NCBI GenBank assembly: GCA_963745035.1
Contig: CAVUVW010000010.1
Location: forward strand, 96,001-160,000
Source of the DNA: an uncultured delta proteobacterium
GTDB taxonomy: Bacteria > Desulfobacterota > Binatia > UBA9968
DNA: 64,000 bases
Direction: 5' to 3'
Both the position numbers and the translations under genes were made by a program. The number at the start of each line of letters is the position of its first letter. The first letter of the stretch is position 1. Under the pieces are notes generated by a model. It was not told the DNA's origin and did not search any database. It worked only from the letters and a program-made list of their open reading frames with translations. Shown here one piece after another: positions 17,706 through 29,894 of this stretch.

Positions 17706-19073
17706 GGCGCTTCGCGCGTGAATTGAAGCTTGCAGACGTGCCGGCGGCCGTCGTCGATAAAGCGAAGCTGGTTTTTCTCGACACCTTGGGCATCGCCCTG
17801 GCGTCATCGACGATGGATTTCGGCGCCATGGTGACCAAGGTGGCGGAGAAGCTCGGTGGCCGAAGCATAGTTTGCTGATCGGTTCGCGACCCGGGTCGCA
17901 GCCGCCAATGCGGTGATCGCCAATGGCACTTTGGCTCACGGATTGGACTATGACGATACGCTGGAAGAAGCGATCGTTCACACCGGTTCCTGCGCGTGGA
18001 TGACCGCGCTCGCGGTCGGCGAAGAAATTGGCGCCAGCGGGACAGCTGTGCTCGAAGCGGCTATCGCCGGCACCGAAGTTTTGTGCAAAGTCGGTCTGGT
18101 AGCGCCGGGAAAGTTTCACGCGCGCGGTTTTCACCCGACCGCGATCTGTTCGACCTTCGGCGCCGCGGCGGCGGCGGGGAAACTTTACGGCCTCAATCTC
18201 GACCAATGGGTTGACGCGTTCGGTCTCTGCGGCAGCCAAAGCTCAGGCATCATCGAGTACCTCGCCGACGGTACCTGGACCAAGCGTATGCATCCCGGCT
18301 GGTCGGCGCACGGCGGGGTTATCGCGACCATGCTGGCCAAGGAAGGCTTCCGCGGGCCGGCAAAGGTTTTCGAGGGCACCCACGGGTTTTTTAGTGGCTT
18401 CGGCGGCAAGAACGATTATCGATTCGAAAAGCTGCTCGAACTCGGCAAGGACTGGGAGATTCCGCGGCTGACTTTTAAATCTTACCCCTGCGGCTCGATC
18501 TCGCATCCCTATATGGACTGCGCACTCAAGATCAGACAGAAACATGCACCCGATCCGAAAGAGATCGCCGAAATCGTTTGCCGGACGGCCGAAGGACCGG
18601 TGCACCGGCTCTGGGAGCCGCTCGCCGACAAGCAGAAGCCGGTGAGCTCTTATGGCGCGAAGTTCAGTCTGCCTTACAGTATCGCGGTCATGATCGTGCG
18701 CGGCCGCGCCGGGCTCGACGAGTTCACCGAAGAAGCGATTCGCGATTCGGCTGTCCTCGACCTGGCTCGTAAAGTTCGCTACGAGCTCGATCCGACTATC
18801 GATTATCCGCGCCACTTCTCGGGCCACGTCAAGGTGTTGATGAAAGACGGCATGGCGCTCGAAGAGAACCAGCCCCATCCTCGCGGCGGCTTCGAAGACC
18901 CTTTGCCGCCCGCTGAGATCGAAGAAAAATTTCGCGCCAACGCCAGGCTCGCGCTTTCACATGAGCAGGTCGAGGATGCGCTGGGCGCGGTCAAGCGTCT
19001 AGAGGAGTTGCCGTCGGTGCGCATATTGACTGAAACGTTGATTCCGGGTAACCGTGGCTCCACTGGTGGTTGA
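17681..19073 (+). CDS. MmgE/PrpD family protein 2 (frame break near 17870-17890)
   Basis: LDTLGIALA, ANGTLAHGLDYDD, RGFHPT, TKRMHPG, FKSYPCG, AKFSLPY. Confidence 0.88.
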
Positions 19074-19115
19074 CATGTGACTGGTTTCAAAATCTCGCGA
19101 GAAGGAGAAACACCT

Positions 19116-20136
19116 ATGAAAAAGAGTGTTTACTTCGTTACTTTGATCGTCGCGCTGTTCTGCGCATCTGTCCTGGCGGCTCAGGATGCCGCGTTGATTC
19201 AGGCGGCGCGAAAAGAAGGCAAGGTCGTTTGGTACACCTCGCTGGCGATTCCCTCATCCACCGCCATCGCCCATTATTTTCAGAATAAATATAAAGGCAT
19301 CGAAGTCGAGGTGCACCGCAGCGGCTCCCAGCGGGTGTTGCAGCGCACCATGCAGGAAGCGACCGCGGGAATCAAAAATGGCGATATCATTCACACCTCG
19401 GATGCCGGCCATTTCGAGCTACTCAAAGACAAAGGGTTGCTGCTCAAGTTTACGCCGGCGGCCGTGGCTGGGTTTCCCGATGGTTTCAAAGACAAGGCCG
19501 GTTTTTACTACGGTATGCGCGCAACATTATCGGTGATCGCACACAACCCGAAGATCGTCACGGAGAAAGACGCGCCGAAAACCTGGAAGGATTTGTTGAA
19601 CAACCGCTGGAGCGGAAAGCTCGTCACGGCTCATCCGGGTTACAGCGGCATCATCATGACCCACGTGCTGGCATTGGTGAACGCCTACGGTTGGGACTAC
19701 TTTCGCGACCTGGCGAAAAACAAAGTGCACATCACGCAGTCCGCCAACGATCCCGCCGGCGTCGTGGCATCGGGCGAGCGGCCGATCGGGGTGAACGGCG
19801 CGGAATATTTCTATTACAAGACTCAGAAACAGGGTAATCCCGATCAAAATAGTTTATCCAAAGGAGGGCGTGCCGCTAGTCGTTTCGCCGACGGCCATCG
19901 CTAAAGACGCGCCCCATCCCAACGCGGCGAGACTCTTCACCGAGTTCATGTTCTCCAAAGAATCGCAGCAGCTCTTGGCCGACAAGGAAGGTCTTTATAC
20001 CGGGCATCCGGAGGTGACTTATCCAAATGACAAGCCCAAACTTAAGGAATTGAAGCTGCTGCCGGCGGACGCCGACGAGCTGGAAAAGCGCAACAGCGAG
20101 ATCAAGAAGCGCTTCACCGAGTATTTCGGCGCATAG
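19116..20136 (+). CDS. ABC transporter substrate-binding protein, Fe3+/thiamine/polyamine cluster (frameshift near 19840)
   Basis: Signal peptide, AARKEGKVVWYTS, PKTWKDLL, APHPNAARLF. Confidence 0.85.
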
Positions 20137-20154
20137 GCGCCGCTAGCTCGATTC

Positions 20155-21879
20155 ATGGCTATACAAACCGGGACGCTCGATCGGGCCGGCCACGCCGGCT
20201 GGTCCGCGTGGCGTTTCAAAGATCCGACGTTTCCCGTCTGGATCGGCGCGGCGGTGCTGCTGGTTTTTCTCATGCTCCTGCCGCTCGGTGCGATCTTTCG
20301 CACCAGCCTGTGGGATGACAAGGGCTTCACCTTCACTCGTTATCTCGAGGTCTTCACCAACGCGCCATTCCTCAAGGCGATCTGGAACACGCTGATTATT
20401 TCGATCTGGGTGGGGGCCATCTCGGTGGTCATCGGTGGTCTGCTCGCTTGGCTCGTCACGCGCACGGACTTGCCGTGGAAAAAACCGATTCGTGCGCTCG
20501 TCATGGCATCGTTCGTGACGCCGCCGTTTCTCGGCGCCTTTGCCTGGACGTTGCTTGCCGGCCCCAACGCAGGCGCGCTGAACAAATTTTATCGCTTTGT
20601 CACCGGCTCGGAAGAAGCGCTCTTCAATATCTTCACCATGTCGGGGCTGATCTTCGTGATGGCGCTTTATAGCTTTCCGTACGTTTTTTCGATGATCGCG
20701 AACGTCTGCGAGCTGATCTCCTCCGATCTCGAGGACGCCGCGGAAATATTGGGCGCGAACAAGTGGCGCATCGCCTGGAGCGTTACCTTGCCGCTGGCGA
20801 TGCCGGCGCTGATCGGCGGGTTTATTCTCGCGTTTCTCCAGTCGCTCTCGCTGTTCGGCGCGCCCGCGATTCTTGGGTTGCCCGCCGGCTTGCACACGAT
20901 CACCACGCAGATCTGGGCGCTTTTTCAGTATCCGCCGCGACTGGATATGGCGGCCGCGTTTTCGGTGCCGCTGCTGCTGGCGACGATGGGTTTAATCGCC
21001 TTGCAGAAGAAAATCCTCGGGCGCAAGGGCTACAGCACCGTGGGCGGTAAGGGTGCGCAAAAGCGCTTGATTCGCCTCGGCTGGGGTCGCATTCCCGTGC
21101 TCTTGTTCGTGTTTGGAATTCTCTCGCTTTCGGTCTTTCTACCGTACTGGATTCTGCTCAAAGCGGCGCTCTCTCAGGCATGGGCGCTGCCGCTCACCTG
21201 GGATAACTTCACGCTCAAAAATTTGTCCTTCGCTTTTTTCGAGTACGGGGATACCCAACTGGCGATCTACAATACGTTCAAGTTAGGAATACTCACCGCC
21301 ACGATCGGCACCGTGCTCGCAACCATGATTGCCTACATCACCAATCGCAATCTCTTTCGCGGCGCGCGCTATTTGTCCTTCTTCGCTCTCGCGCCGGTAG
21401 TCATCCCGGGAATCGTGTTGGCTGTCGGATTGTTTATTGCCTACACGCGGCCGCCGCTGGTGCTTTACGGCACGGTGTGGATTCTTTTCGTGGCCTACTT
21501 GACGAAGGAGATGCCCATCGGTTTTTCCCAGGCCGAATCGACCTTTAAGAGTATCCACCCGGAGCTCGAAGACGCGAGCCGGATTATCGGCGCCAATCGA
21601 TTGACTTCGCTGATCGACGTCACCGCGCCGCTGGCGCGCTCGGGACTGATCGCGGCGTGGTCGTTTATCTTCATAGGCGTCATCCGGGAGCTGAGCGCGT
21701 CGATTCTGCTTTTTGCGCCCAAGTCGAAGGTCGTCTCCGTCGTTATCTTCGATCTCAAAGAAGAAGGGCAGATCGGCGTGATCGCGGTTTTGGGCATTCT
21801 GCTCTTGCTCGTTTCCTTCGCGGTGATTCTCGCCGTCCATGCGCTCGCGGCGCGGGACGTAGTGGCGACTCGGGAGTAA
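20155..21879 (+). CDS. ABC transporter permease, duplicated domain (FbpB-like)
   Basis: Two EAA loops (LEDAAEILGA, LEDASRIIGA), many TMs. Confidence 0.9.
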   Translation: MAIQTGTLDRAGHAGWSAWRFKDPTFPVWIGAAVLLVFLMLLPLGAIFRTSLWDDKGFTFTRYLEVFTNAPFLKAIWNTLIISIWVGAISVVIGGLLAWLVTRTDLPWKKPIRALVMASFVTPPFLGAFAWTLLAGPNAGALNKFYRFVTGSEEALFNIFTMSGLIFVMALYSFPYVFSMIANVCELISSDLEDAAEILGANKWRIAWSVTLPLAMPALIGGFILAFLQSLSLFGAPAILGLPAGLHTITTQIWALFQYPPRLDMAAAFSVPLLLATMGLIALQKKILGRKGYSTVGGKGAQKRLIRLGWGRIPVLLFVFGILSLSVFLPYWILLKAALSQAWALPLTWDNFTLKNLSFAFFEYGDTQLAIYNTFKLGILTATIGTVLATMIAYITNRNLFRGARYLSFFALAPVVIPGIVLAVGLFIAYTRPPLVLYGTVWILFVAYLTKEMPIGFSQAESTFKSIHPELEDASRIIGANRLTSLIDVTAPLARSGLIAAWSFIFIGVIRELSASILLFAPKSKVVSVVIFDLKEEGQIGVIAVLGILLLLVSFAVILAVHALAARDVVATRE

Positions 21880-21882
21880 TTT

Positions 21883-22968
21883 ATGGCGGTGGTTTCGCTC
21901 CGCGGTCTTACGAAAAAATTTACCGATGCTGCCGCCGTCGATGCGCTCGATCTCGAAATCGGCGACGGGGAATTCGTTTCACTGCTTGGGCCTTCCGGCT
22001 GCGGCAAGACCACGACGCTACGCCTCGTAGCGGGCTTTTTGCAGCCCGACAGCGGCGAGATTCGCGTCGACGGCAATGTGATCTCGTCGTCCGCGCTGCT
22101 CGTGCCGCCCGAGCGCCGCAACATGTCGATGATCTTTCAGAGCTACGCGGTCTGGCCGCACATGACCGTGGCGCAAAACGTCGCCTACGGCCTCAAGTTC
22201 AAAAAACTTTCCAAGCAGGAAATCGATGTCAAAGTGGCCAAGCTGCTAAGTGTCGTCCACTTGGGGGAGCTGAAGGACCGCTATTCCGCCGAGCTGTCCG
22301 GCGGCCAGCAGCAGCGGGTCGCGCTGGCGCGCGCTTTGGTCGTCGAGCCGCAGATTCTCCTGATGGACGAGCCGCTGAGCAACCTGGACGCGAATCTGCG
22401 CGAAGAGATGCGCTTCGAGATTCGCCGGCTGCACGAAGAATTCAGGATCACGACGATTTACGTCACCCACGATCAGGCCGAAGCGATGGCGACCTCGGAT
22501 CGGATTGCGGTGCTCGACCGCGGCCGGTTGGTTCAAGTCGGCCGGCCCGCGGAAATATTCGATCGGCCGAAGACCCGTTTCGTCGCCGAGTTCGTCGGCA
22601 AAGCCAATATCTTGACGGGACGCATGGACGGCGCCGGCCGGCTGGTCTTGCCGGACGGCTCGAGCATTCGCCTGAACGGCGCCGGCGCGGCGGCTGCGAG
22701 CGAAGTGTCCGTCTGCCTGCGCCCGCACAACATCATGCTCGTCGCCGATGCGGCGGCGGCGCGAGATTTTGCGGACCAGGGCTACAATCTCTTTTCCGGC
22801 GCGATTCGGCGCTCGATCTATTTTGGCGACGCGGTCGATTACGCGGTCGAGCTTCCTTCGGGCGCGTTGCTGCGCGTGATTGCGGCGCCGTCTCAGCGCT
22901 TCGATTCCGGCCAGTCGATCCACGCCGCCGCCCATCCCGATCACTGCGTCGTCGTGCGCGACGACTGA
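21883..22968 (+). CDS. ABC transporter ATP-binding protein (PotA/FbpC-like)
   Basis: GPSGCGKTT, LSGGQQQR, LMDEPLSNLD, VTHDQ. Confidence 0.93.
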   Translation: MAVVSLRGLTKKFTDAAAVDALDLEIGDGEFVSLLGPSGCGKTTTLRLVAGFLQPDSGEIRVDGNVISSSALLVPPERRNMSMIFQSYAVWPHMTVAQNVAYGLKFKKLSKQEIDVKVAKLLSVVHLGELKDRYSAELSGGQQQRVALARALVVEPQILLMDEPLSNLDANLREEMRFEIRRLHEEFRITTIYVTHDQAEAMATSDRIAVLDRGRLVQVGRPAEIFDRPKTRFVAEFVGKANILTGRMDGAGRLVLPDGSSIRLNGAGAAAASEVSVCLRPHNIMLVADAAAARDFADQGYNLFSGAIRRSIYFGDAVDYAVELPSGALLRVIAAPSQRFDSGQSIHAAAHPDHCVVVRDD

Positions 22969-23134
22969 TCCCAACGGATTGTTTCGATTTCGCGGATTTA
23001 GCGAAGAGAATTTCTCCGGACGCCCGCGATTTTCTTAAAGACCAGACCCGCCCATGCGCGCTTCGCCCAGCGCGGTCCGGAATTTTTCCGGCGAGTCGAA
23101 ACGAAAAAGGCAGAGCTCTTGCTGAAACGACAGA

Positions 23135-23797
23135 TCAGTGGCCAGGACTTTCCCACACGTTCATCGCGGCGCGGCAGCAGAGCGCGTCTTGCTCGGGCCG
23201 GCTGGCGCCGGCGACGCCGATGGCGCCGACGATGGTCACGCCGTTGAGGATGGGCAAGGCGCCGCCCACGGGCATCATGCGGCCGCGGTGGGAAATCATC
23301 AGGCTGCGCAGCCAGGGTTCGCGCGCCTGGGGAGCGAGCTCCGTGGTCGCCATGTGCAGCGCCGCCGCGGTGTAGGCTTTATGGAATGCGAGCTCCGCCG
23401 AGCGCGGCTCGGCTTTGTCCATGCGCCCGACTGCGATGGGCGCGCCGGCTTCGTCCACGACCACCGCGCTCACCGCGAGTCCGACCATCTGGGCGTATTC
23501 CTGGGCCGAATGAATCATCTCCCAGGCCATGTCGAACGGGACCGGACCGACCGCCGCTTTGTTCTTGCGGAAAAAAGCGGCGTTGACTTCGATCGATCCC
23601 ACATGTTCGGCGGGAATGTCGATGTCTTTGAAGATCGCGTCCACCGGGCAAACGATCTCGCACTGCTCGCAATCGATGCAGACTTCGGGATCGATGTAGA
23701 ACTGCGGCGCGCCCGGCGTGGTGTGGATGCAGGCGACCGGACAGACTTCGACGCACGCGCCGTCGTTGGTGCACAGGCTGGTGATGATGTAGGGCAT
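23135..23797 (-). CDS. Ferredoxin (FdxA-type) fused to a GlcG/HbpS (DUF336) heme-binding domain
   Basis: MPYIITSLCTNDGACVEVCPVAC...CIDCEQCEIVCP, then SAVVVDEAG..RMD..AFHKAYTAA..GGALPI..VGAIGVAG. Confidence 0.88.
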   Translation of the reverse strand: MPYIITSLCTNDGACVEVCPVACIHTTPGAPQFYIDPEVCIDCEQCEIVCPVDAIFKDIDIPAEHVGSIEVNAAFFRKNKAAVGPVPFDMAWEMIHSAQEYAQMVGLAVSAVVVDEAGAPIAVGRMDKAEPRSAELAFHKAYTAAALHMATTELAPQAREPWLRSLMISHRGRMMPVGGALPILNGVTIVGAIGVAGASRPEQDALCCRAAMNVWESPGH

Positions 23798-23887
23798 GGG
23801 TCCTCGCGTTGCTCGGAATCTCACATCTCAGATGTTGAGACGGCCATATGTGAAATTTGAAATTTGCAATCTGTCATGGCCGAAGGG

Positions 23888-24459
23888 CTAGCCGTCGGCC
23901 GCGAGCGGCAGGTCGGTGCGGATCGCGTTGGCGACGTACACGTCAAGCGCCGAATTGCGGCGTGACCAAGCGGCCGTCGGCGTTGAGCGTGCCTAACTTC
24001 GCCCGCACGGCAAGCTTCTCATCGCCAGGCTGCGGCGCCGCCGTGGCGCGAAAGCCCAGCTCTCTGATCCACGCGCTCAAAACGAAGGTGATGAACAAGC
24101 CGTTTTGCACCGGTACTTGGCCGCCGATCCCCGGCGACGTGCGCGGATCGTACTCGGCGCGCACGGCGCAGAGCACGGCAAAAGGCAGGCCTTCGGGATT
24201 TGCGGGGTCGTCGGTATCGAGCTTGGCGATCCCCGTCATGGCAGCGCCGAAGTACTCGGCCATGCCTTTGACGTGCTGCGCGGTAATCTCCGGCGTGTGC
24301 AGCTCGGTTCGCGTCGGGAATATATTCCCTTCGGGGGCCTTGCGGATCATCTCGGTCACCGTATTGGCGAGATCCGCGGGCGGCGTGTTGATGAAAAAAT
24401 CCCAGTAAGGATCGTCCCGGCGCGGGTTTTTCCCGAGTCCAGGGAAGTCGCAAAGCCAC
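23888..24459 (-). CDS. Short reductive-dehalogenase-like paralog lacking the Fe-S domain (frameshifts near 24420 and 23945)
   Basis: HVKGMAEYFGAAMTGIA, LSAWIRELGFRA, LGTLNADGRLVTPQFGA, then in shifted frame DVYVANAIRTDLPLAADG-stop; GTG start overlaps upstream stop. Confidence 0.7.
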
Positions 24460-25776
24460 TAGGCGTCCCGTTTGACGAAGCGGTTGGTGTTCTCCTTGAG
24501 CGGCGCATAGTAACCGACGTTTCCGGTCACGGGAGCCGCCGATTTCTTTTCGTGCGACGCGTTGCAGCCGGCGACGGTGCAGGCGTGCTCGCCCGGCTTG
24601 ACGCCGGAGTCGTAGCCCAGCCAAGTGACGCGGCTGCTGCGCACCACGCCCCAGTAGCGGTCGTCGATCCATTTGAGGAAACGCACGAGAGTCGGCCGCG
24701 CGAAGTAAGGACAGGCATGAAGCAGGGAGACCGTCATCGTGTGCCACCAAACATTGGGTTTAGTGAACGGGCAAACTGCGGCGCAGGTCAGGCAACTGCC
24801 CCAGTGCTCGTGCACGTAGGGTCTCAGCTTGTAGCAGGTGAGCCAGTTGATCTTGTATTTTTCGATGCCGTTGAACACGACCTTGTCGCCGAACGGAATG
24901 CTGTTGGTCGGGCAGGTATTGGCGCATTTGCGGCAGATCTTGCAGAAGTCATCGACGCCGATGTCCACCGGCTCGTCGGCAACGAGCGGCAGGTCGGTCA
25001 GGATCGGGTCCGGCATGTGCACGCGGGCGCCGAAATTTTTGTTGATCACTAGGCCGTTTCTGCCCAGCTCGCCGATGCCGCCGGCGACCCCCGCCGCCTG
25101 CGGCGTCACCACACCGCGCAGGGCCGTATAACCCATTTCTTTGATGTAGCCTTCGAGGGCTTTCAGCACCATCACGCCTTTCATTTGCGAAACGTGATAG
25201 GCGGCGTCGCCGACGTGATGGCGGTGCGCTTGCAGCTTGTTGTAATCCCACGCGGTGGTCGCCTGAATGATGTAGGGAAAGCGGCGCACCAGCTCTTCGG
25301 GCGAATTGCTTTGGAAGTCATCTTTGGCCGTGCCGTCCTGCACATAGCGGCCGCCGCCGGCGGCGTAGAGAAACGACGGATGCGCCTTGGCGATGCCGAC
25401 CACGTCGGCGCCCATGTAAAGAGCGACGGCTTTGATGTGGCGGGCCATCGCCGCCGGATCGTCCACCGCCATTCTCCGTGTATTGATTTTGCCGTTGCTC
25501 GACCGGTTGATGACATTGGTCAGAAAGTGTTTGCGGTCCGCGAAGTGATTCGGCGCGGAGACACGGGTCAGAGGATCTTTGGACACCGTGTTGCGATACC
25601 AGTTGAACAGCGGTTTGCCGAGCTCGCCGCGCTGGTTTTTCGGATGGGGCGACTGGTTCATGTCGACGTTGACGTGCTCGCCGACGATTTTAACGGAACG
25701 TCCCAGATAAGGCGTGGGAAATTCGGCGCTGCCGTTGGCGCGCTTGTGATGGTTCCCGGCTTTGTGCTTTGGACAT
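24459..25776 (-). CDS. Reductive dehalogenase-like cobalamin/2x[4Fe-4S] protein (probable frameshift near 25760)
   Basis: IKAVALYMGADVVGIA, YIKEMGYTA, GIGELGRNGLVI..FGARV..TDLPLVADEP, FCKICRKCANTCP, CLTCAAVCPF. Confidence 0.85.
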
Positions 25777-25871
25777 GTCAGGCCCTCCGTTGTTTAAGGA
25801 TGAAGGATGAAAGCCGCGGGGTCAAATGGCGCCCGAACGGCAAATAAGATCATCCTCTAGCCTTGCGGTTT

Positions 25872-26273
25872 TTACCCTTGGTACGCCGCCAGCGCCACCT
25901 CGGCGCATTTCTGGTCCTGGTCTTCGGTGCCGCCGGACACGGCGATGGCGCCGACTACGTTACCGCCTTCGACAATCGGCAGTGCGCCACCTCCCGGCAT
26001 AATGCGGCCACTGCTCGAAACCACAAGACTCTGAAACCAGGTTTGTCCGGCGACGCCAGCCAGTTCCTTGGTGGGTTGCTGGAAGCTTGCTGCAGTGTAG
26101 GCCTTGTTGAGAGCGATTTCGACCGTGATTGGACGCGCCTTATCCATGCGTCCCAAGGCGATCATGCGGCCGCTTTGATCAACCACAGCCGCGGTCACCG
26201 CAATATCCAGTTGGGTCGCCTGGCTGTGGGCGTTGCGCACCATTTGGATCGCTTTTTCTCCGGGAATAGCCAT
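25872..26273 (-). CDS. GlcG/HbpS (DUF336) heme/cobalamin-binding family protein
   Basis: AAVVDQSG..RMD..IALNKAYTAA..GGGALPI..VGAIAVSGG..QDQKCA; RBS GAGGAGG. Confidence 0.9.
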   Translation of the reverse strand: MAIPGEKAIQMVRNAHSQATQLDIAVTAAVVDQSGRMIALGRMDKARPITVEIALNKAYTAASFQQPTKELAGVAGQTWFQSLVVSSSGRIMPGGGALPIVEGGNVVGAIAVSGGTEDQDQKCAEVALAAYQG

Positions 26274-26467
26274 TGTCGCTGCGGTCCTCCTCGGTGTCGA
26301 TGTCGATTGTCTACTTTAGCAGAGATACGCCATGGTGCGTCAAGGGGATAGGTGCTTGGATCAATGTGTACCGCCCTGTCTTGATTGATTGCCACGCGCG
26401 GAGTCACTATGGAAGAGCGCGGCAGTCTCGCCGAAACTCGTCTACTGCTCACGAACGGAGGTTACCG

Positions 26468-26962
26468 ATGTATTTGCGCACGGTGCTGATTATCCTAGTG
26501 CTCGGCTTGGTGGCGATCTTTGCAATTTTTAACTGGAGCGCCTTCTCGGCGCCGACGACGCTGACCCTGGGCTTTGCCACGGTCGAGGCGCCACTCGGGC
26601 TCATTTTGCTCGGCGTCGTCGGGGTGGTGACCGCGCTGTTTCTCGTCTACGTGGTTTTCTTGCAGTCATCCACCCTTATGGAGAGCCGGCGGCAGGCGCG
26701 CGAGCTGCAGGCGCAGCGTGAGATCGCGGACCGCGCCGAGGCGTCGCGCTTCGAGCAGCTACGATCCGCCATGGAAGACGCACTCAAACAGCTGCAGAAC
26801 CAATCTGCAGAATCCAAAACCATCATACTCACCAGGCTCGACCAACTTGAGAACGACTTGCGCGCAGCGGTGGAGCAGTCGGGCAACACGCTGGCGGCCT
26901 ATATCGGCGAAATTGAAGATCGTCTGGAACGAGCCGGCGGTGGAAAGATCTCGCCTCCATGA
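26468..26962 (+). CDS. LapA/DUF1049-like membrane protein with coiled-coil tail
   Basis: AIFAIFNW..LTLGF..APLGLILL two-TM pattern; RBS GGAGG. Confidence 0.7.
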   Translation: MYLRTVLIILVLGLVAIFAIFNWSAFSAPTTLTLGFATVEAPLGLILLGVVGVVTALFLVYVVFLQSSTLMESRRQARELQAQREIADRAEASRFEQLRSAMEDALKQLQNQSAESKTIILTRLDQLENDLRAAVEQSGNTLAAYIGEIEDRLERAGGGKISPP

Positions 26963-27012
26963 CGCTAGGATAGCTAGTCGGATTTGTGCCGATCAACGGC
27001 CTACCCTTGCAT

Positions 27013-28314
27013 CTACTTCTTGGCGCTGACGCGCCACACTTTGTCTCCGGCGTCATCGGCAACCAGCAGCGAGCCATCGGGCGCGACGGTAACGCCCACC
27101 GGCCGACCATATGCTTCGAACTTCGACTCATCGGAGACAAATCCGGTTAAAATATCTTCGATCGGTCCAGCCGGCCTACCATTGGCAAATGGAATAAACG
27201 CGACTTTGTAGCCGACCATCTTCGAGCGATTCCACGAACCGTGCATGCCGATAAAAGCGCCGCCGTGATACCTTTGTGGCAAGCTCTTGCCGTTGTAGAA
27301 CGCCAACCCTAGAGCGGCGGTGTGGGATCCAAGAGCGTAGTCAGGTTTGATCGCTTTGGCGACCAGATCCGGCCGCTGGCCTTTCTTGCGCGGATCTTCG
27401 ATTTGCCCGAAGTAGGAATAGGGCCAACCATAAAAAGCGCCTTCCTTAACGCTTGTGAGGTAGTCCGGAACCAAATCGTCGCCGAGCAGATCGCGCTCGT
27501 TCACCACCGTCCAGAGGCTCTTGGTTGTTGGCTCCCAATCCATGCCGACCGGGTTGCGCAGTCCGCCGGCGAGCACGCGCATCGCGCTGCCGTCGGGATT
27601 GATTTCCAGAATCGCTGCACGCCGCGGGTCTTTCGCGTCGGCGCCGTCTTCGTCGACATTCGAACTCGAGCCAACCGCGATATAAAGTTTTTTCCCCGCC
27701 GGATCGGCGATGAGATTACGGGTGTAATGCCCGCCCGCGGGTAGATCGAGAACTTTTTGCGGTTGTGCGTCGATTTTCGTTTGTCCGGCTTTGTAGGGAA
27801 AGCGCACTACGCCGTCGGTGTTGCCGACGTAAAACCAGTCGCCCAACAATGCCATACCGTGCGGCATATTCAGTCCCGTCAAGAAAGTCTCGCGCAAATC
27901 CGGCTTGCCGTCCTGATTGGTGTCGCGAAAAAGTGTGATGCGATTGGCCGATTTTTCCGGCCGGTCGGCGCGGCCCGGCCATTCACGGGTGGCTTCCACG
28001 ACCAGGATATCACCGTTCGGCAAAACGTAAGCTTGACGTGGATTGTCGAGTTTGTCCGCGAACAGAGCGACTTCGAGGCCGGCAGCCGCTGTCGGCATCT
28101 TTCCCTGCGGCCACCCGATAACCTTCGAATTATTGCGGGTGGACGGGGTGGCGAAAGGCGGGGGCAGTTGCAGCTGGTCGGCAGGGCCGGTACCCGGAGC
28201 ATAAGAAACTCGAACCGCCTTTTGCTGATCCGCCGCGCAAGAAACAATCAGCATCACAATGACGCTCGCCATTGCGGTGGCCATTGCACTGGATAGATAT
28301 CGATCGAACATCAT
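27013..28314 (-). CDS. Sorbosone/PQQ-dependent sugar dehydrogenase family lipoprotein
   Basis: IVSC lipobox-like, GLRNPVG, VNERDLLGDDLVPDY, FYGWPY, HGSWNR, GRPVGV. Confidence 0.9.
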   Translation of the reverse strand: MMFDRYLSSAMATAMASVIVMLIVSCAADQQKAVRVSYAPGTGPADQLQLPPPFATPSTRNNSKVIGWPQGKMPTAAAGLEVALFADKLDNPRQAYVLPNGDILVVEATREWPGRADRPEKSANRITLFRDTNQDGKPDLRETFLTGLNMPHGMALLGDWFYVGNTDGVVRFPYKAGQTKIDAQPQKVLDLPAGGHYTRNLIADPAGKKLYIAVGSSSNVDEDGADAKDPRRAAILEINPDGSAMRVLAGGLRNPVGMDWEPTTKSLWTVVNERDLLGDDLVPDYLTSVKEGAFYGWPYSYFGQIEDPRKKGQRPDLVAKAIKPDYALGSHTAALGLAFYNGKSLPQRYHGGAFIGMHGSWNRSKMVGYKVAFIPFANGRPAGPIEDILTGFVSDESKFEAYGRPVGVTVAPDGSLLVADDAGDKVWRVSAKK

Positions 28315-28468: not shown

Positions 28469-29894
28469 ATGCATTACCGGGATTTGCGCGAATGGGTGAA
28501 AGGCGTCGATTCATTCGGCGAGCTGCGTGTCGTCGAAGGCGCCGACTGGAATCAGGAGATCGGCGCGGTGGCCGAGGTCGCGGCGCAGTCCCAGCCGCCG
28601 CCCGCGGTGCTGTTCGATAAGATCAAAGACTATCCTGCGGGCCGGCGCGTGCTCACCGGCATTCACAACCCGACCCTGAAGCGCCAGTGCCTGACCAATC
28701 ACCTGCCGCTCGATTACAGCGCGCGATCAATTCATCGATGCCTGGAAGAAGCGCCTGGACCGTCCGAAGCTGATCCCGCCGCGCGAAGTCGCCTCGGGAC
28801 CGGTGATGGAAAACGTATTCGAAGGCAAGGACATCGATCTTTTGTCCTTGCCGGCGCCACATTGGCATGAAGGCGACGGCGGGCGTTATTTGGGCTCCCT
28901 CGATATCACGATCAGCCGCGATCTCGACGAAGGCTGGATCAATCTCGGCTGCTACCGAGTCATGGTGCATGACCGCGACACTTTGGCGCTTTACATTTCG
29001 CCGGGCCATCACGGCAACATCCACCGGCAAAAATATTTCGACAAGGGGCAGCCGTTTCCAGTGGCGATCAGCTTCGGACCCGGATCCGCTGCTTTGGTTC
29101 TTCGGCCAAATGGACGTGCCGGCGGGCGAGTCGGAGTACGATTATGCCGGCGGCGTGCGTGGCGAAGCCATTCGAGATTATCGCCGGCAAGCACACCGGG
29201 CTGCCGATTCCGGCTTATTCCGGAGATCGCCATCGAAGGCGAAGTGATTCCTGGAACGAAAATTCCCGAGGGACCGTTCGGCGAATTCACCGGCTACTAC
29301 GCCGGCGGGCTGCGCGCCGAGCCGATGCTCAAAGTGAAGCGGCTGATGTACCGCAACGACCCGATCATCACCGGCGCGCCGCCGTTCAAGCCCGCGCCGG
29401 GCGCGGAGAACAATCTGATCCGCGCCGCCTACATCTGGAACTATCTCGACAAGGCTGGGGTGCCGGACGTGCGCGGCGTCGCCTATTATCAGACGCGGCT
29501 GCTGGTCGCGGTGTCGATCAAGCAGCGCTATCCCGGCCATGCGCGCCAGGCGGCGCTGATCGCTTCGCAATGCCGCGCCGCGGCGCTGCTCACGCGCTAC
29601 GTCATCGTGGTCGACGAAGACATCGACATCTGGGACAGCAACGAGCTTTTGTGGGCGCTCTGCACGCGTACGGATCCGGCGAAAGACATCGACATCCTGC
29701 GGCGCTGCTGGAGCAACCCCATCGACCCGATCATTCCGCCGAGTGAGCGCGGCTTTCAGTCGCGCGGCATCATCGACGCCTGCCGGCCCTACGAATGGAT
29801 GAATGATTTTCCGAAAGTCTCCGGCGCAAGCGCGGAGTTGAAGGCAAAGGTGGCGGAGAAGTTCGGCGCGAGTCTAGCGGGGAAGAAGAACTAG
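28469..29894 (+). CDS. UbiD-family prFMN-dependent (de)carboxylase (several frameshifts)
   Basis: YRDLREW, NLGCYR, EGPFGEFTGYY, VVDEDID, WALCTRTDP, IIDACRP. Confidence 0.88.

Follow-up and report, generated by a model that had tools for sequence, protein, structure and literature searches.

A conserved four-gene cassette with a reductive dehalogenase-family enzyme, a separate core paralog and two DUF336 proteins in an uncultured member of the Binatia

By domain organisation, reductive dehalogenases (RdhA) have been sorted into four kinds: respiratory enzymes, transmembrane enzymes, and two catabolic kinds, of which one has a reductase domain and the other lacks it (PMC10463259). The catabolic RdhAs are described as carrying a fused, vestigial duplication of the core, which is devoid of cobalamin and imitates the contact between the two monomers of PceA (PMC10463259). 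The catabolic enzyme NpRdhA requires ferredoxin in vitro (PMC7565698), and its gene adjoins ferredoxin genes (PMC7565698, PMC10463259). DUF336 proteins, also named GlcG or HbpS-like, have been found beside B12 enzymes, as with PduO and OrfY of Klebsiella pneumoniae (PMC4923194). Here, we analyzed a window of 64,000 nucleotides (positions 96,001 to 160,000 of the forward strand of contig CAVUVW010000010.1, assembly GCA_963745035.1) from an uncultured delta proteobacterium of soil that GTDB places in the Binatia (Desulfobacterota; UBA9968). The minus strand of this window carried four genes in a row at 23135-26273, which encoded the stand-alone DUF336 protein GlcG1, an RdhA-like enzyme, a short paralog of this enzyme and a ferredoxin-DUF336 fusion. 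The cassette is a real, intact and strongly conserved operon, in which an RdhA-family enzyme is combined with a presumed vestigial core in trans and with putative DUF336-linked electron delivery.

A preliminary description of the locus had reported four co-directional genes, two GlcG/HbpS-domain genes bracketing an enzyme pair, both Fe-S motifs in the RdhA-like enzyme, and a shorter RdhA paralog translationally coupled to it, without an RdhB anchor or a fused reductase domain. All of these features were recovered. The open reading frame (ORF) list gave the four genes on the minus strand at these coordinates. GlcG1 and the fusion both matched PF03928 (107.6 and 98.1 bits, respectively; gathering cut-off 25), and the latter was fused to Fer4. 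Eight cysteines of the enzyme were conserved in an alignment of 58 rows, in which C240, C243, C246, C250 and C276 were invariant and C290, C293 and C297, together with P298, were nearly so. The short gene product matched the enzyme in BLASTP with an E value of 6e-10 and in profile-profile comparison with a probability of 99.8%. The TAG stop codon of the enzyme (24461-24459) and the GTG start codon of the short gene (24459-24457) had one G in common. Of 51 related loci with both genes, 23 had a one-base overlap between the enzyme stop and the first start codon of the short frame, and in 8 this codon came directly after the stop, which together made 31. Neither an RdhB anchor nor a fused reductase domain was seen in the operon in the ORF list and Pfam matches, no small RdhB-like membrane gene was present in or next to it among the window ORFs, and the four-gene set contained neither a ferredoxin reductase nor a regulator. 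The listed ORF of the enzyme spanned 24459-25661 (400 amino acids), and the residue numbers used here (C240, Y155, H215 and others) follow this ORF. The short paralog was listed at 23943-24359. The fusion gene was listed at 23135-23824; its real start is at 23797, which gives 23135-23797 and 220 amino acids.

A word-indexed search returned 641 matches to the enzyme, and the best 120 of them showed 70-92% identity and were nearly all metagenomic. Synteny, which had been proposed as a check on the locus, was counted in 53 related loci from species-representative genomes. The set does co-occur: all four genes stood in the same order in 39 of the 53 loci, 11 loci were cut by contig ends with every testable gene present, and 3 were exceptions. 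GlcG1 lay upstream of the enzyme in 48 of the 49 loci where its position was testable, and the extra core was a separate gene in 50 of the 51 loci with an uncut position. The remaining one was L026, the first exception, where the short gene was in fragments. In the second, L025, no fusion gene followed downstream, and the same metagenome-assembled genome (MAG) carried the fusion on another contig (L087). In this MAG, the enzyme and the short paralog were followed by a pyruvate kinase gene, and the ferredoxin-DUF336 gene lay behind permease genes of an ATP-binding cassette (ABC) transporter. The third exception, L038 (1406-4229), was the most distant member (52% identity), came from a marine metagenome MAG and had no upstream GlcG1. 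It comprised three genes only (enzyme, short paralog and fusion), with a gap of 107 bases in place of the stop/start overlap. Its enzyme tail was without the Cys-x4-Cys motif, and its DUF336 domain was nearer to GlcG1 (56%) than those of the other fusions were.

A search that started from the full-length fusion gave 55 loci, many of them on contigs identical with those of the first set. The other three genes were found upstream in 45 of these loci and were cut in 8, and the 2 exceptions were again the L025/L087 MAG and L038. No full-length ferredoxin-DUF336 fusion was found outside the cassette among the 55 fusion loci. By these counts the arrangement is far beyond chance. No flanking gene beyond the four was conserved in more than 11 of the 53 loci, the best being a cluster of ABC-type binding proteins (11 of 53).

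GlcG1 had a ratio of nonsynonymous to synonymous substitution (Ka/Ks) of 0.049, and the enzyme gene one of 0.103; the short paralog reached 0.123 and the whole fusion gene 0.104. These ratios are rough, as Ks was about 1.4-1.6 and synonymous sites were near saturation. The values indicate that all four genes, the short one too, are kept by purifying selection. The loci bore NCBI labels of about eight phyla, with Binatota the commonest, although MAG labels and binning are uncertain. In the class of the window, a copy at 77% identity or more was present in 8 of 201 sampled genomes, its own included, nearly all of them from one family. Contigs of a rhizosphere RNA library covered 23723-24061 and 25785-26121 at 98-99% identity, which is a hint of expression.

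The 400-residue ORF of the enzyme scored 148 bits with the NCBIfam reductive dehalogenase (RDH) model TIGR02486, and 144 bits in the genome search, against a cut-off of 160.35. Its neighbors P0122 (160.6 bits) and P0143 (164.3 bits) were just over this cut-off, and P0128 (155.5 bits) was under it. With the QueG model TIGR00276, the enzyme reached 57 bits against a cut-off of 200. Fer4_7 and Fer4_16 matched residues 240-299. In HMMER comparisons with proteins of known structure, the matches were NpRdhA (4ras, E 2e-29), PceA (5e-27) and QueG (1e-9). The structural model had a mean predicted local distance difference test score (pLDDT) of 74.5 with a confident core, and it superposed on NpRdhA residues 286-637 with Z 30.2 (326 residues aligned; root mean square deviation, rmsd, 3.0), on the PceA-PceB complex with Z 28.8, on PceA with Z 26-27 and on QueG with Z 14. 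The model thus appears to combine a corrinoid-type nitroreductase-like core with a following two-motif Fe-S domain, the order of the RdhA family. The genome of the window had a true QueG on another contig (401 bits) and no other RDH-type gene.

A phylogeny with RdhA, NpRdhA-like and QueG proteins was built from 103 rows, comprising 97 representatives of 50%-identity clusters, the window enzyme, four related loci and the QueG of the genome as the outgroup. The starred clade that contained the enzyme had nine rows; its nearest neighbor was P0128 (39% identity), followed by P0137 and P0143 as a pair. A more careful tree of 45 rows gave the same picture, with support of 100/99 and then 92/93. QueG was a long outgroup in both trees, and the NpRdhA-like P0213 (654 bits to 4ras) was in a different starred clade. 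In an approximately unbiased (AU) test on the 45-row set, a single group of the enzyme clade and the NpRdhA-like proteins, a group named after the tree was seen, was rejected (p-AU 0.0001). By sequence, the enzyme is placed in the RdhA family, in a clade of its own apart from NpRdhA and outside the QueG clade. No twin-arginine translocation (Tat) signal was apparent, as had been stated before: an RR motif within the first 70 residues occurred in none of the 32 full-length clade members, and neither did a hydrophobic stretch of 19 residues. Its cytoplasmic location and RdhA rather than QueG nature, which the preliminary description had proposed, are consistent with the scores, the fold, the trees and the separate QueG gene. 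For the C-terminal tail (residues 346-400) no fixed structure was predicted, and its sequence was kept among homologs to the last residues; it is possible that this tail is a docking peptide.

For NpRdhA, a proton-donor dyad of Y426 and K488 has been proposed; the substrate hydroxyl is held by K488, R552 and S422, and the K488Q exchange abolishes activity (PMC7565698). Residue equivalence was obtained by counting along the HMMER alignment, in which the K488Q entry 6zy0 marked the column. K488 corresponded to His215 of the enzyme and R552 to Arg280. Y426 fell one column before the invariant Tyr155, at a place where the alignment is uncertain by one residue. In the 58-row alignment, the His215 position was His in all 33 rows of the clade vs. 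Arg or Lys in 21 of the 22 other cytoplasmic RdhAs, and P0128 had Ser there. Arg280 and the Tyr155-His156 pair were invariant in the clade. From these residues, the active site looks live but changed.

The short paralog had no Pfam family match, and a search of the ESM Atlas gave 'hypothetical protein' clusters only. Its profile aligned with that of the enzyme family in hhalign (probability 99.8, E 1.7e-30) over enzyme residues 24-231. The alignment stopped exactly at the start of the Fe-S domain and had a three-residue gap at the Tyr155 site, and the nearly invariant Glu198 position was missing. The model of the short paralog (pLDDT 83.5) fitted NpRdhA residues 337-502 with Z 15.6 (rmsd 1.9) and residues 65-220 with Z 15.3, followed by PceA and QueG (Z 13), CblD (Z 9) and CblC (Z 8). 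Its profile scored 30.2 bits with the vestigial half of NpRdhA and 26.2 bits with the catalytic half. An assignment to one of the two halves was tried and given up, as both fitted about equally. Robust fused forms did not turn up; all 7 of the longer matches belonged to clusters of 1 to 5 sequences and were read as gene-calling across frameshifts. In the sister group, P0137 (603 amino acids) was a compact fused form with an N-terminal core lacking the Fe-S domain, followed by a catalytic RdhA. In P0140 (685 amino acids), the RDH-type match (362.9 bits) fell into two stretches, so that this protein may be a tandem RdhA.

The natural reading is that the enzyme and the short paralog probably form a heterodimer, because the stop codon of one gene overlaps the start codon of the other, the paralog spans the core in full, and the catabolic RdhAs carry a fused vestigial core. 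This agrees with the possible heterodimer of the preliminary description.

In the ferredoxin domain of the fusion, residues 10-93 scored 69.5 bits with FdxA_Actino (cut-off 125), and another FdxA model gave 46.7 against 65. Its cysteine patterns, Cx5Cx3CP and CxxCxxCxxxCP, were invariant in 12 rows, and we take them to be of the 7Fe type. In the related RdhA clade at about 40% identity (P0128-like), a stand-alone ferredoxin lay directly downstream of the RdhA gene in 5 of the 7 copies examined, and it matched fusion residues 10-89 at 40-45% identity. Neither DUF336 nor the short paralog was present at any of these 7 copies. P0128-like paralogs were seen in L065-L070 (genomes G002, G121, G161 and G175, relatives in the same family), often in several copies per genome and with six in G002. 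That the fusion ferredoxin is the electron donor of the enzyme is supported, because the clade at 40% identity has a ferredoxin directly downstream and NpRdhA needs one. A dedicated electron-delivery partner had also been suggested by the preliminary description, and the occurrence of the fusion only with the cassette points the same way.

The two DUF336 domains were 45-56% identical. Among proteins of solved structure, the closest relative of GlcG1 was 2a2l (OrfY of K. pneumoniae, DUF336; E 5.6e-21), followed by NahX (9jth), PduO's C-terminal domain (PduO-C) and EfgA (6bws, E 1e-9). A literature search on NahX found nothing on its function. PduO-C is reported to bind heme via His18 with a dissociation constant (Kd) of 0.16 uM and hardly any aquo-cobalamin, while HbpS binds heme (1 uM) and, weakly, aquo-cobalamin (Kd 34 uM; PMC4923194). 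His18 of PduO-C (5cx7) aligned to Ile9 of GlcG1 and to Trp in the fusion of the window, with Trp or Ser across the fusion proteins, and because of these replacements the bis-His heme-binding mode of PduO-C would not be kept. A role of the DUF336 domains in cofactor maintenance is attractive but unproven; its appeal comes from the recurrence of DUF336 by cobalamin enzymes and from the fusion of one copy to an electron carrier. The corrinoid handling that the preliminary description had assigned to the GlcG proteins was not supported by the locus, since the case for it is drawn from the literature about relatives. The genome itself had seven HbpS-like (DUF336) genes, three of which (on C7, C3 and C6) had the same score and a frame of 161 amino acids and may be repeated copies.

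Compared with the described systems, the cassette is most like the catabolic RdhAs (NpRdhA 4RAS, 6ZXU-6ZY1; JtRdhA; BhbA), which are likewise cytoplasmic and lack both a Tat signal and RdhB. They share a corrinoid-type core with two [4Fe-4S] motifs, the best sequence and structure match, the retained equivalent of Arg552, a core copy beside the catalytic core that would be B12-free in the cassette too, and a presumed need for a ferredoxin-type donor. However, the presumed vestigial copy of the cassette is encoded by a separate, coupled gene after the catalytic gene, not by an N-terminal fused domain. The enzyme also differs from NpRdhA in its clade and in the His at Lys488, and the cassette differs from the catabolic RdhAs in having its presumed donor ferredoxin fused to DUF336, a second DUF336 gene and no PDOR reductase domain. 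The respiratory RdhAs (PceA 4UQU; PceA-PceB 8Q4H) have the same fold and Fe-S motifs, and the homodimer interface of PceA is what the short paralog presumably imitates. In contrast to them, the cassette has no Tat signal, membrane anchor gene or RdhT-like chaperone gene, occurs as one copy per genome and would form a heterodimer instead of a homodimer. QueG (5D08, 5T8Y) belongs to the same superfamily and is also cytoplasmic, with one highly conserved copy per genome, but it is a weak match.

The P0128-like sister clade contains the nearest full-length relatives outside the cassette clade (support 99-100). It shares a ferredoxin of the same presumed 7Fe type, although as a stand-alone protein, and it differs in having no short paralog, no DUF336 and up to 6 copies per genome. 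The human CblC-CblD pair (MMACHC-MMADHC) resembles the enzyme pair in combining a B12-binding nitroreductase-like protein with a B12-free paralog of the same fold. This is a distant likeness of fold and logic only (11-12% identity), and CblC-CblD serves cofactor processing and is not an Fe-S redox enzyme. PduO-C (5CX7), OrfY (2A2L) and HbpS (3FPV) share with the cassette the Pfam family and a genomic link to a cobalamin enzyme, and tetrapyrrole binding has been reported for DUF336/HbpS-like relatives (PMC4923194). Unlike with PduO and OrfY, the partner in the cassette is an RdhA-type enzyme and not an adenosylcobalamin enzyme. Unlike in PduO, DUF336 is fused to a ferredoxin and not to an adenosyltransferase, and His18 is not conserved.

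Here, the four genes are proposed to make up a single enzyme system that is cytoplasmic and belongs to the class-III cobalamin (RdhA/QueG) superfamily, a reading that, taken whole, could equally well hold or fail. The catalytic subunit of 438 amino acids would hold a base-off corrinoid site in its nitroreductase-like core and two [4Fe-4S] clusters. The protein of 189 amino acids would be a catalytically dead copy of the core, with no Fe-S domain and with a deletion at the tyrosine site. It would pair with the catalytic subunit in place of the second protomer of PceA or of the fused vestigial domain of the NpRdhA type, and translation of the two genes of this heterodimer would be coupled. Single electrons would reach the clusters of the enzyme from the 7Fe ferredoxin domain of the fusion. 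There, cob(II)alamin would be reduced to cob(I)alamin, followed by the reductive removal of a leaving group, most likely a halide, from one specific and probably natural substrate. The two DUF336 domains would be accessory, and our preferred guess is that they may keep or restore the redox state of the tetrapyrrole cofactor, or load it, in an aerobic cell.

Several observations weigh against this reading. The RDH score of the enzyme was under the NCBI cut-off, Tyr155 and Y426 were one column apart in an uncertain stretch of the alignment, and one MAG had the enzyme and the fusion gene on different contigs. The reaction may not be classical dehalogenation, because the Lys/Arg partner is His in all rows of the clade and the K488Q variant of NpRdhA is inactive. 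The short paralog matched the two halves of NpRdhA, catalytic and vestigial, about equally well, and its mean column identity of 65% is too high for a protein that serves as a scaffold alone. The case for DUF336 in cofactor handling is weakly founded, given the weak binding of aquo-cobalamin and the unconserved heme ligand of PduO-C, and the DUF336 protein EfgA has been described as a formaldehyde sensor (PMC8153426). The operon contained no ferredoxin reductase, and the search for a cobalamin riboswitch was negative. The gene set and its conservation, the homologies, the predicted folds and the intact frames were established here, whereas we infer the cofactor content, the heterodimer, the electron path with the docking of the ferredoxin, the role and contacts of the DUF336 domains, and the reaction.

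The description of EfgA leads to the first of the other explanations, in which the enzyme core is the same and the DUF336 domains are small-ligand sensors or scaffolds, for example for an aldehyde or another reactive product, in the way that EfgA binds formaldehyde. They could gate the electron flow through the fused ferredoxin or simply oligomerize the complex. DUF336 proteins are known to oligomerize, from dimers to octamers (PMC4923194), and the identity between the two domains makes a mixed oligomer conceivable. The absent heme ligand of PduO-C fits as well, and the Binatota have been reported as methylotrophs (PMC8262859). However, the closest solved relative of GlcG1 was OrfY and not EfgA, a role in redox chemistry is suggested by the ferredoxin to which one domain is fused, and no regulator or other target gene was linked to the cassette. 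We consider this explanation unlikely, though it has the most to recommend it among the alternatives.

It is less probable still that the cassette encodes two corrinoid units, in which the short paralog and the fusion ferredoxin re-create a second, split RdhA-like corrinoid protein. Such a protein would carry corrinoid or provide another active site, and the DUF336 domain of the fusion would be its partner, as GlcG1 would be for the enzyme. The gene order can be read in this way, as DUF336 plus core-FeS followed by core plus FeS-DUF336, and the end of the short paralog coincides exactly with the point at which the enzyme continues into its Fe-S domain. The short paralog also keeps most glycine and TDLPL core-motif positions, is strongly conserved and fits the catalytic half of NpRdhA in its model. 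Against this stand the FdxA type of the ferredoxin, which is like the stand-alone ferredoxin of the sister clade and unlike the Fe-S domain of the enzyme, the gap at the tyrosine site, the missing Glu198 position and the lack of a robust natural fusion of short paralog and ferredoxin among the longer matches.

The four genes might also be neighbors with related tasks and no stable complex, with the enzyme acting as a monomer or homodimer, as other small cytoplasmic RdhAs do, and the short paralog having an independent function. Many cytoplasmic RdhAs of 370-410 amino acids have no vestigial domain, the P0128-like sister clade has neither the short paralog nor DUF336, and the L025/L087 MAG splits the set over two contigs. 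We regard this as improbable in view of the stop/start overlap and of the near-perfect linkage over a synonymous divergence that is saturated.

Far less credible is that the enzyme is an epoxyqueuosine reductase (QueG) or modifies tRNA as some other member of the superfamily. The homolog P0104 is labeled 'epoxyqueuosine reductase QueG' in one source, and very high conservation and a single copy per genome are QueG-like traits. For practical purposes, this candidate was refuted by the low score with the QueG model, the Z value of about half that with NpRdhA, the outgroup position of QueG in the trees and the separate true QueG gene.

As assembled, the window breaks the frames of the cassette three times, in the N-terminus of the enzyme and at both ends of the short gene. 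The comparison contigs, near-identical and from four other public runs (X16 an RNA-library run, the other three DNA), lacked the extra letters as given in Table 1. Without the letter at 25742, the enzyme frame was open over 438 amino acids (ATG 25776 to TAG 24459), of which 381 were identical to those of L008. Without the other extra letters, the short-gene frame was open over 189 amino acids (GTG 24459 to stop 23888), of which 152 were identical to L004. The enzyme homologs had 425-456 amino acids, started about 40 residues earlier than the listed ORF and ended at the same residues. The short-gene homologs had about 190 amino acids, began at the enzyme stop and ended in a conserved TDLPLA(A/P)DG. 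Two other genes of the assembly were split in a similar manner. A UbiD-family gene at 28469-29894 (+) lay in at least two frames (UbiD_N 28469-28870; UbiD and UbiD_C 28803-29894), with a frameshift like those of the cassette, probably by assembly error. The cobS gene of the genome (cobalamin 5'-phosphate synthase, G000:C14:713067-713774) was in three pieces in different frames, one with an internal stop. Because other runs lack the letters and UbiD and cobS are split likewise in this noisy assembly, the breaks were treated as assembly errors or strain-private changes and not as a feature of the system. That the cassette, with its three frameshifts within 3 kb, is decaying into pseudogenes in this genome is hardly to be believed, although the letters at 25742, 24436 and 23947/23948 as assembled would suggest it, since contigs of three DNA runs and one RNA-library run are without exactly those letters.

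Table 1. Positions of the cassette features in the window.
Feature	Position	Strand	Evidence
GlcG1, stand-alone DUF336/HbpS-like, 133 amino acids	25872..26273	-	PF03928, E 5.9e-31
RdhA-like catalytic subunit, 438 amino acids without extra letter 25742	24459..25776	-	TIGR02486, NpRdhA match, fold
First Fe-S motif, CxxCxxCxxxCP (C240-P251 of the 400-residue ORF)	24909..24944	-	cysteines invariant, 58 rows
Second Fe-S motif (C276 ... C290xxC293xxxC297P)	24768..24836	-	C276 invariant, others nearly
His215, position of NpRdhA Lys488	25017..25019	-	His in 33/33 clade rows
Conserved C-terminal tail of the enzyme, residues 346-400	24462..24626	-	pLDDT 30-46
TAGTG junction, enzyme stop overlapping the GTG start of the short paralog	24457..24461	-	sequence; 31/51 loci
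Short paralog, RdhA core without Fe-S domain, 189 amino acids without extra letters	23888..24459	-	hhalign, model
7Fe-type ferredoxin domain of the fusion, as presumed (Cx5Cx3CP ... CxxCxxCxxxCP)	23543..23797	-	Fer4, E 2.2e-13
DUF336/HbpS-like domain of the fusion protein	23162..23533	-	PF03928, E 5e-28, residues 98-221 of the listed ORF
Extra letter, frameshift in the enzyme N-terminus	25742	.	absent from contigs X5 and X6
Extra letter, frameshift near the short-gene start	24436	.	absent from contig of X6
Extra letter, frameshift near the short-gene end	23947..23948	.	absent from X6 (at 23947), X1 and X16 (at 23948)

Around the cassette, no Rfam family, including the cobalamin riboswitch, was detected in 22500-27500 at E values up to 1, and promoter and terminator scans gave nothing usable beyond chance. 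On the plus strand at 17913-22968, a MmgE/PrpD-family gene was followed by an ABC set (solute-binding protein, fused permease and TOBE-domain ATPase), which ran toward the cassette and converged on its 3' end. The gene at 26273-26962 (+), immediately upstream of the operon and in the opposite orientation, encoded a coiled-coil membrane protein of LapA-domain-like type, and it recurred upstream in 6 of the 53 loci. Beyond it, a gene like a glucose/sorbosone dehydrogenase of the pyrroloquinoline quinone (PQQ) type lay at 27013-28314 (-). None of the UbiD-like, ABC, LapA-like and PQQ-type neighbors was conserved with the cassette in the 53 loci. The cobN gene was not found in the genome, which is 92.6% complete, and the cobN and cobS evidence is too thin as a guide to the corrinoid source of the cell.

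The architecture had not been recognized in the preliminary description, and no paper with this arrangement was found. In the searchable library, no paper linked a reductive dehalogenase with GlcG or Binatia, and among the matches listed none paired one with DUF336 or HbpS. In the scheme of four kinds of RdhA, the cassette would be a fifth layout, with the vestigial core as a separate subunit and the ferredoxin fused to DUF336. As a soluble system without Tat export or membrane anchoring, it is suited to asking what the B12-free core copy does. It also suits the question of the role of DUF336 beside cobalamin enzymes, which the PduO-C paper (PMC4923194) does not answer.

We further considered a housekeeping-like B12 system of aerobic soil bacteria, in which a live/dead heterodimer of the RdhA type would catalyze a non-classical reduction of a conserved natural substrate at the site with His for Lys/Arg, and DUF336 would be a corrinoid chaperone or reductive reactivator wired to the ferredoxin. 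We hold this to be rather doubtful, and if true it would be the first defined biochemical role of DUF336 with B12 enzymes. The substrate may be a common natural compound, because the enzyme is very widespread in soil metagenomes (641 matches) and under strong purifying selection. The active site with His215 may mean a chemistry other than dehalogenation. A common natural substrate, if true, would bear on the cycling of halogens or other elements in soils.

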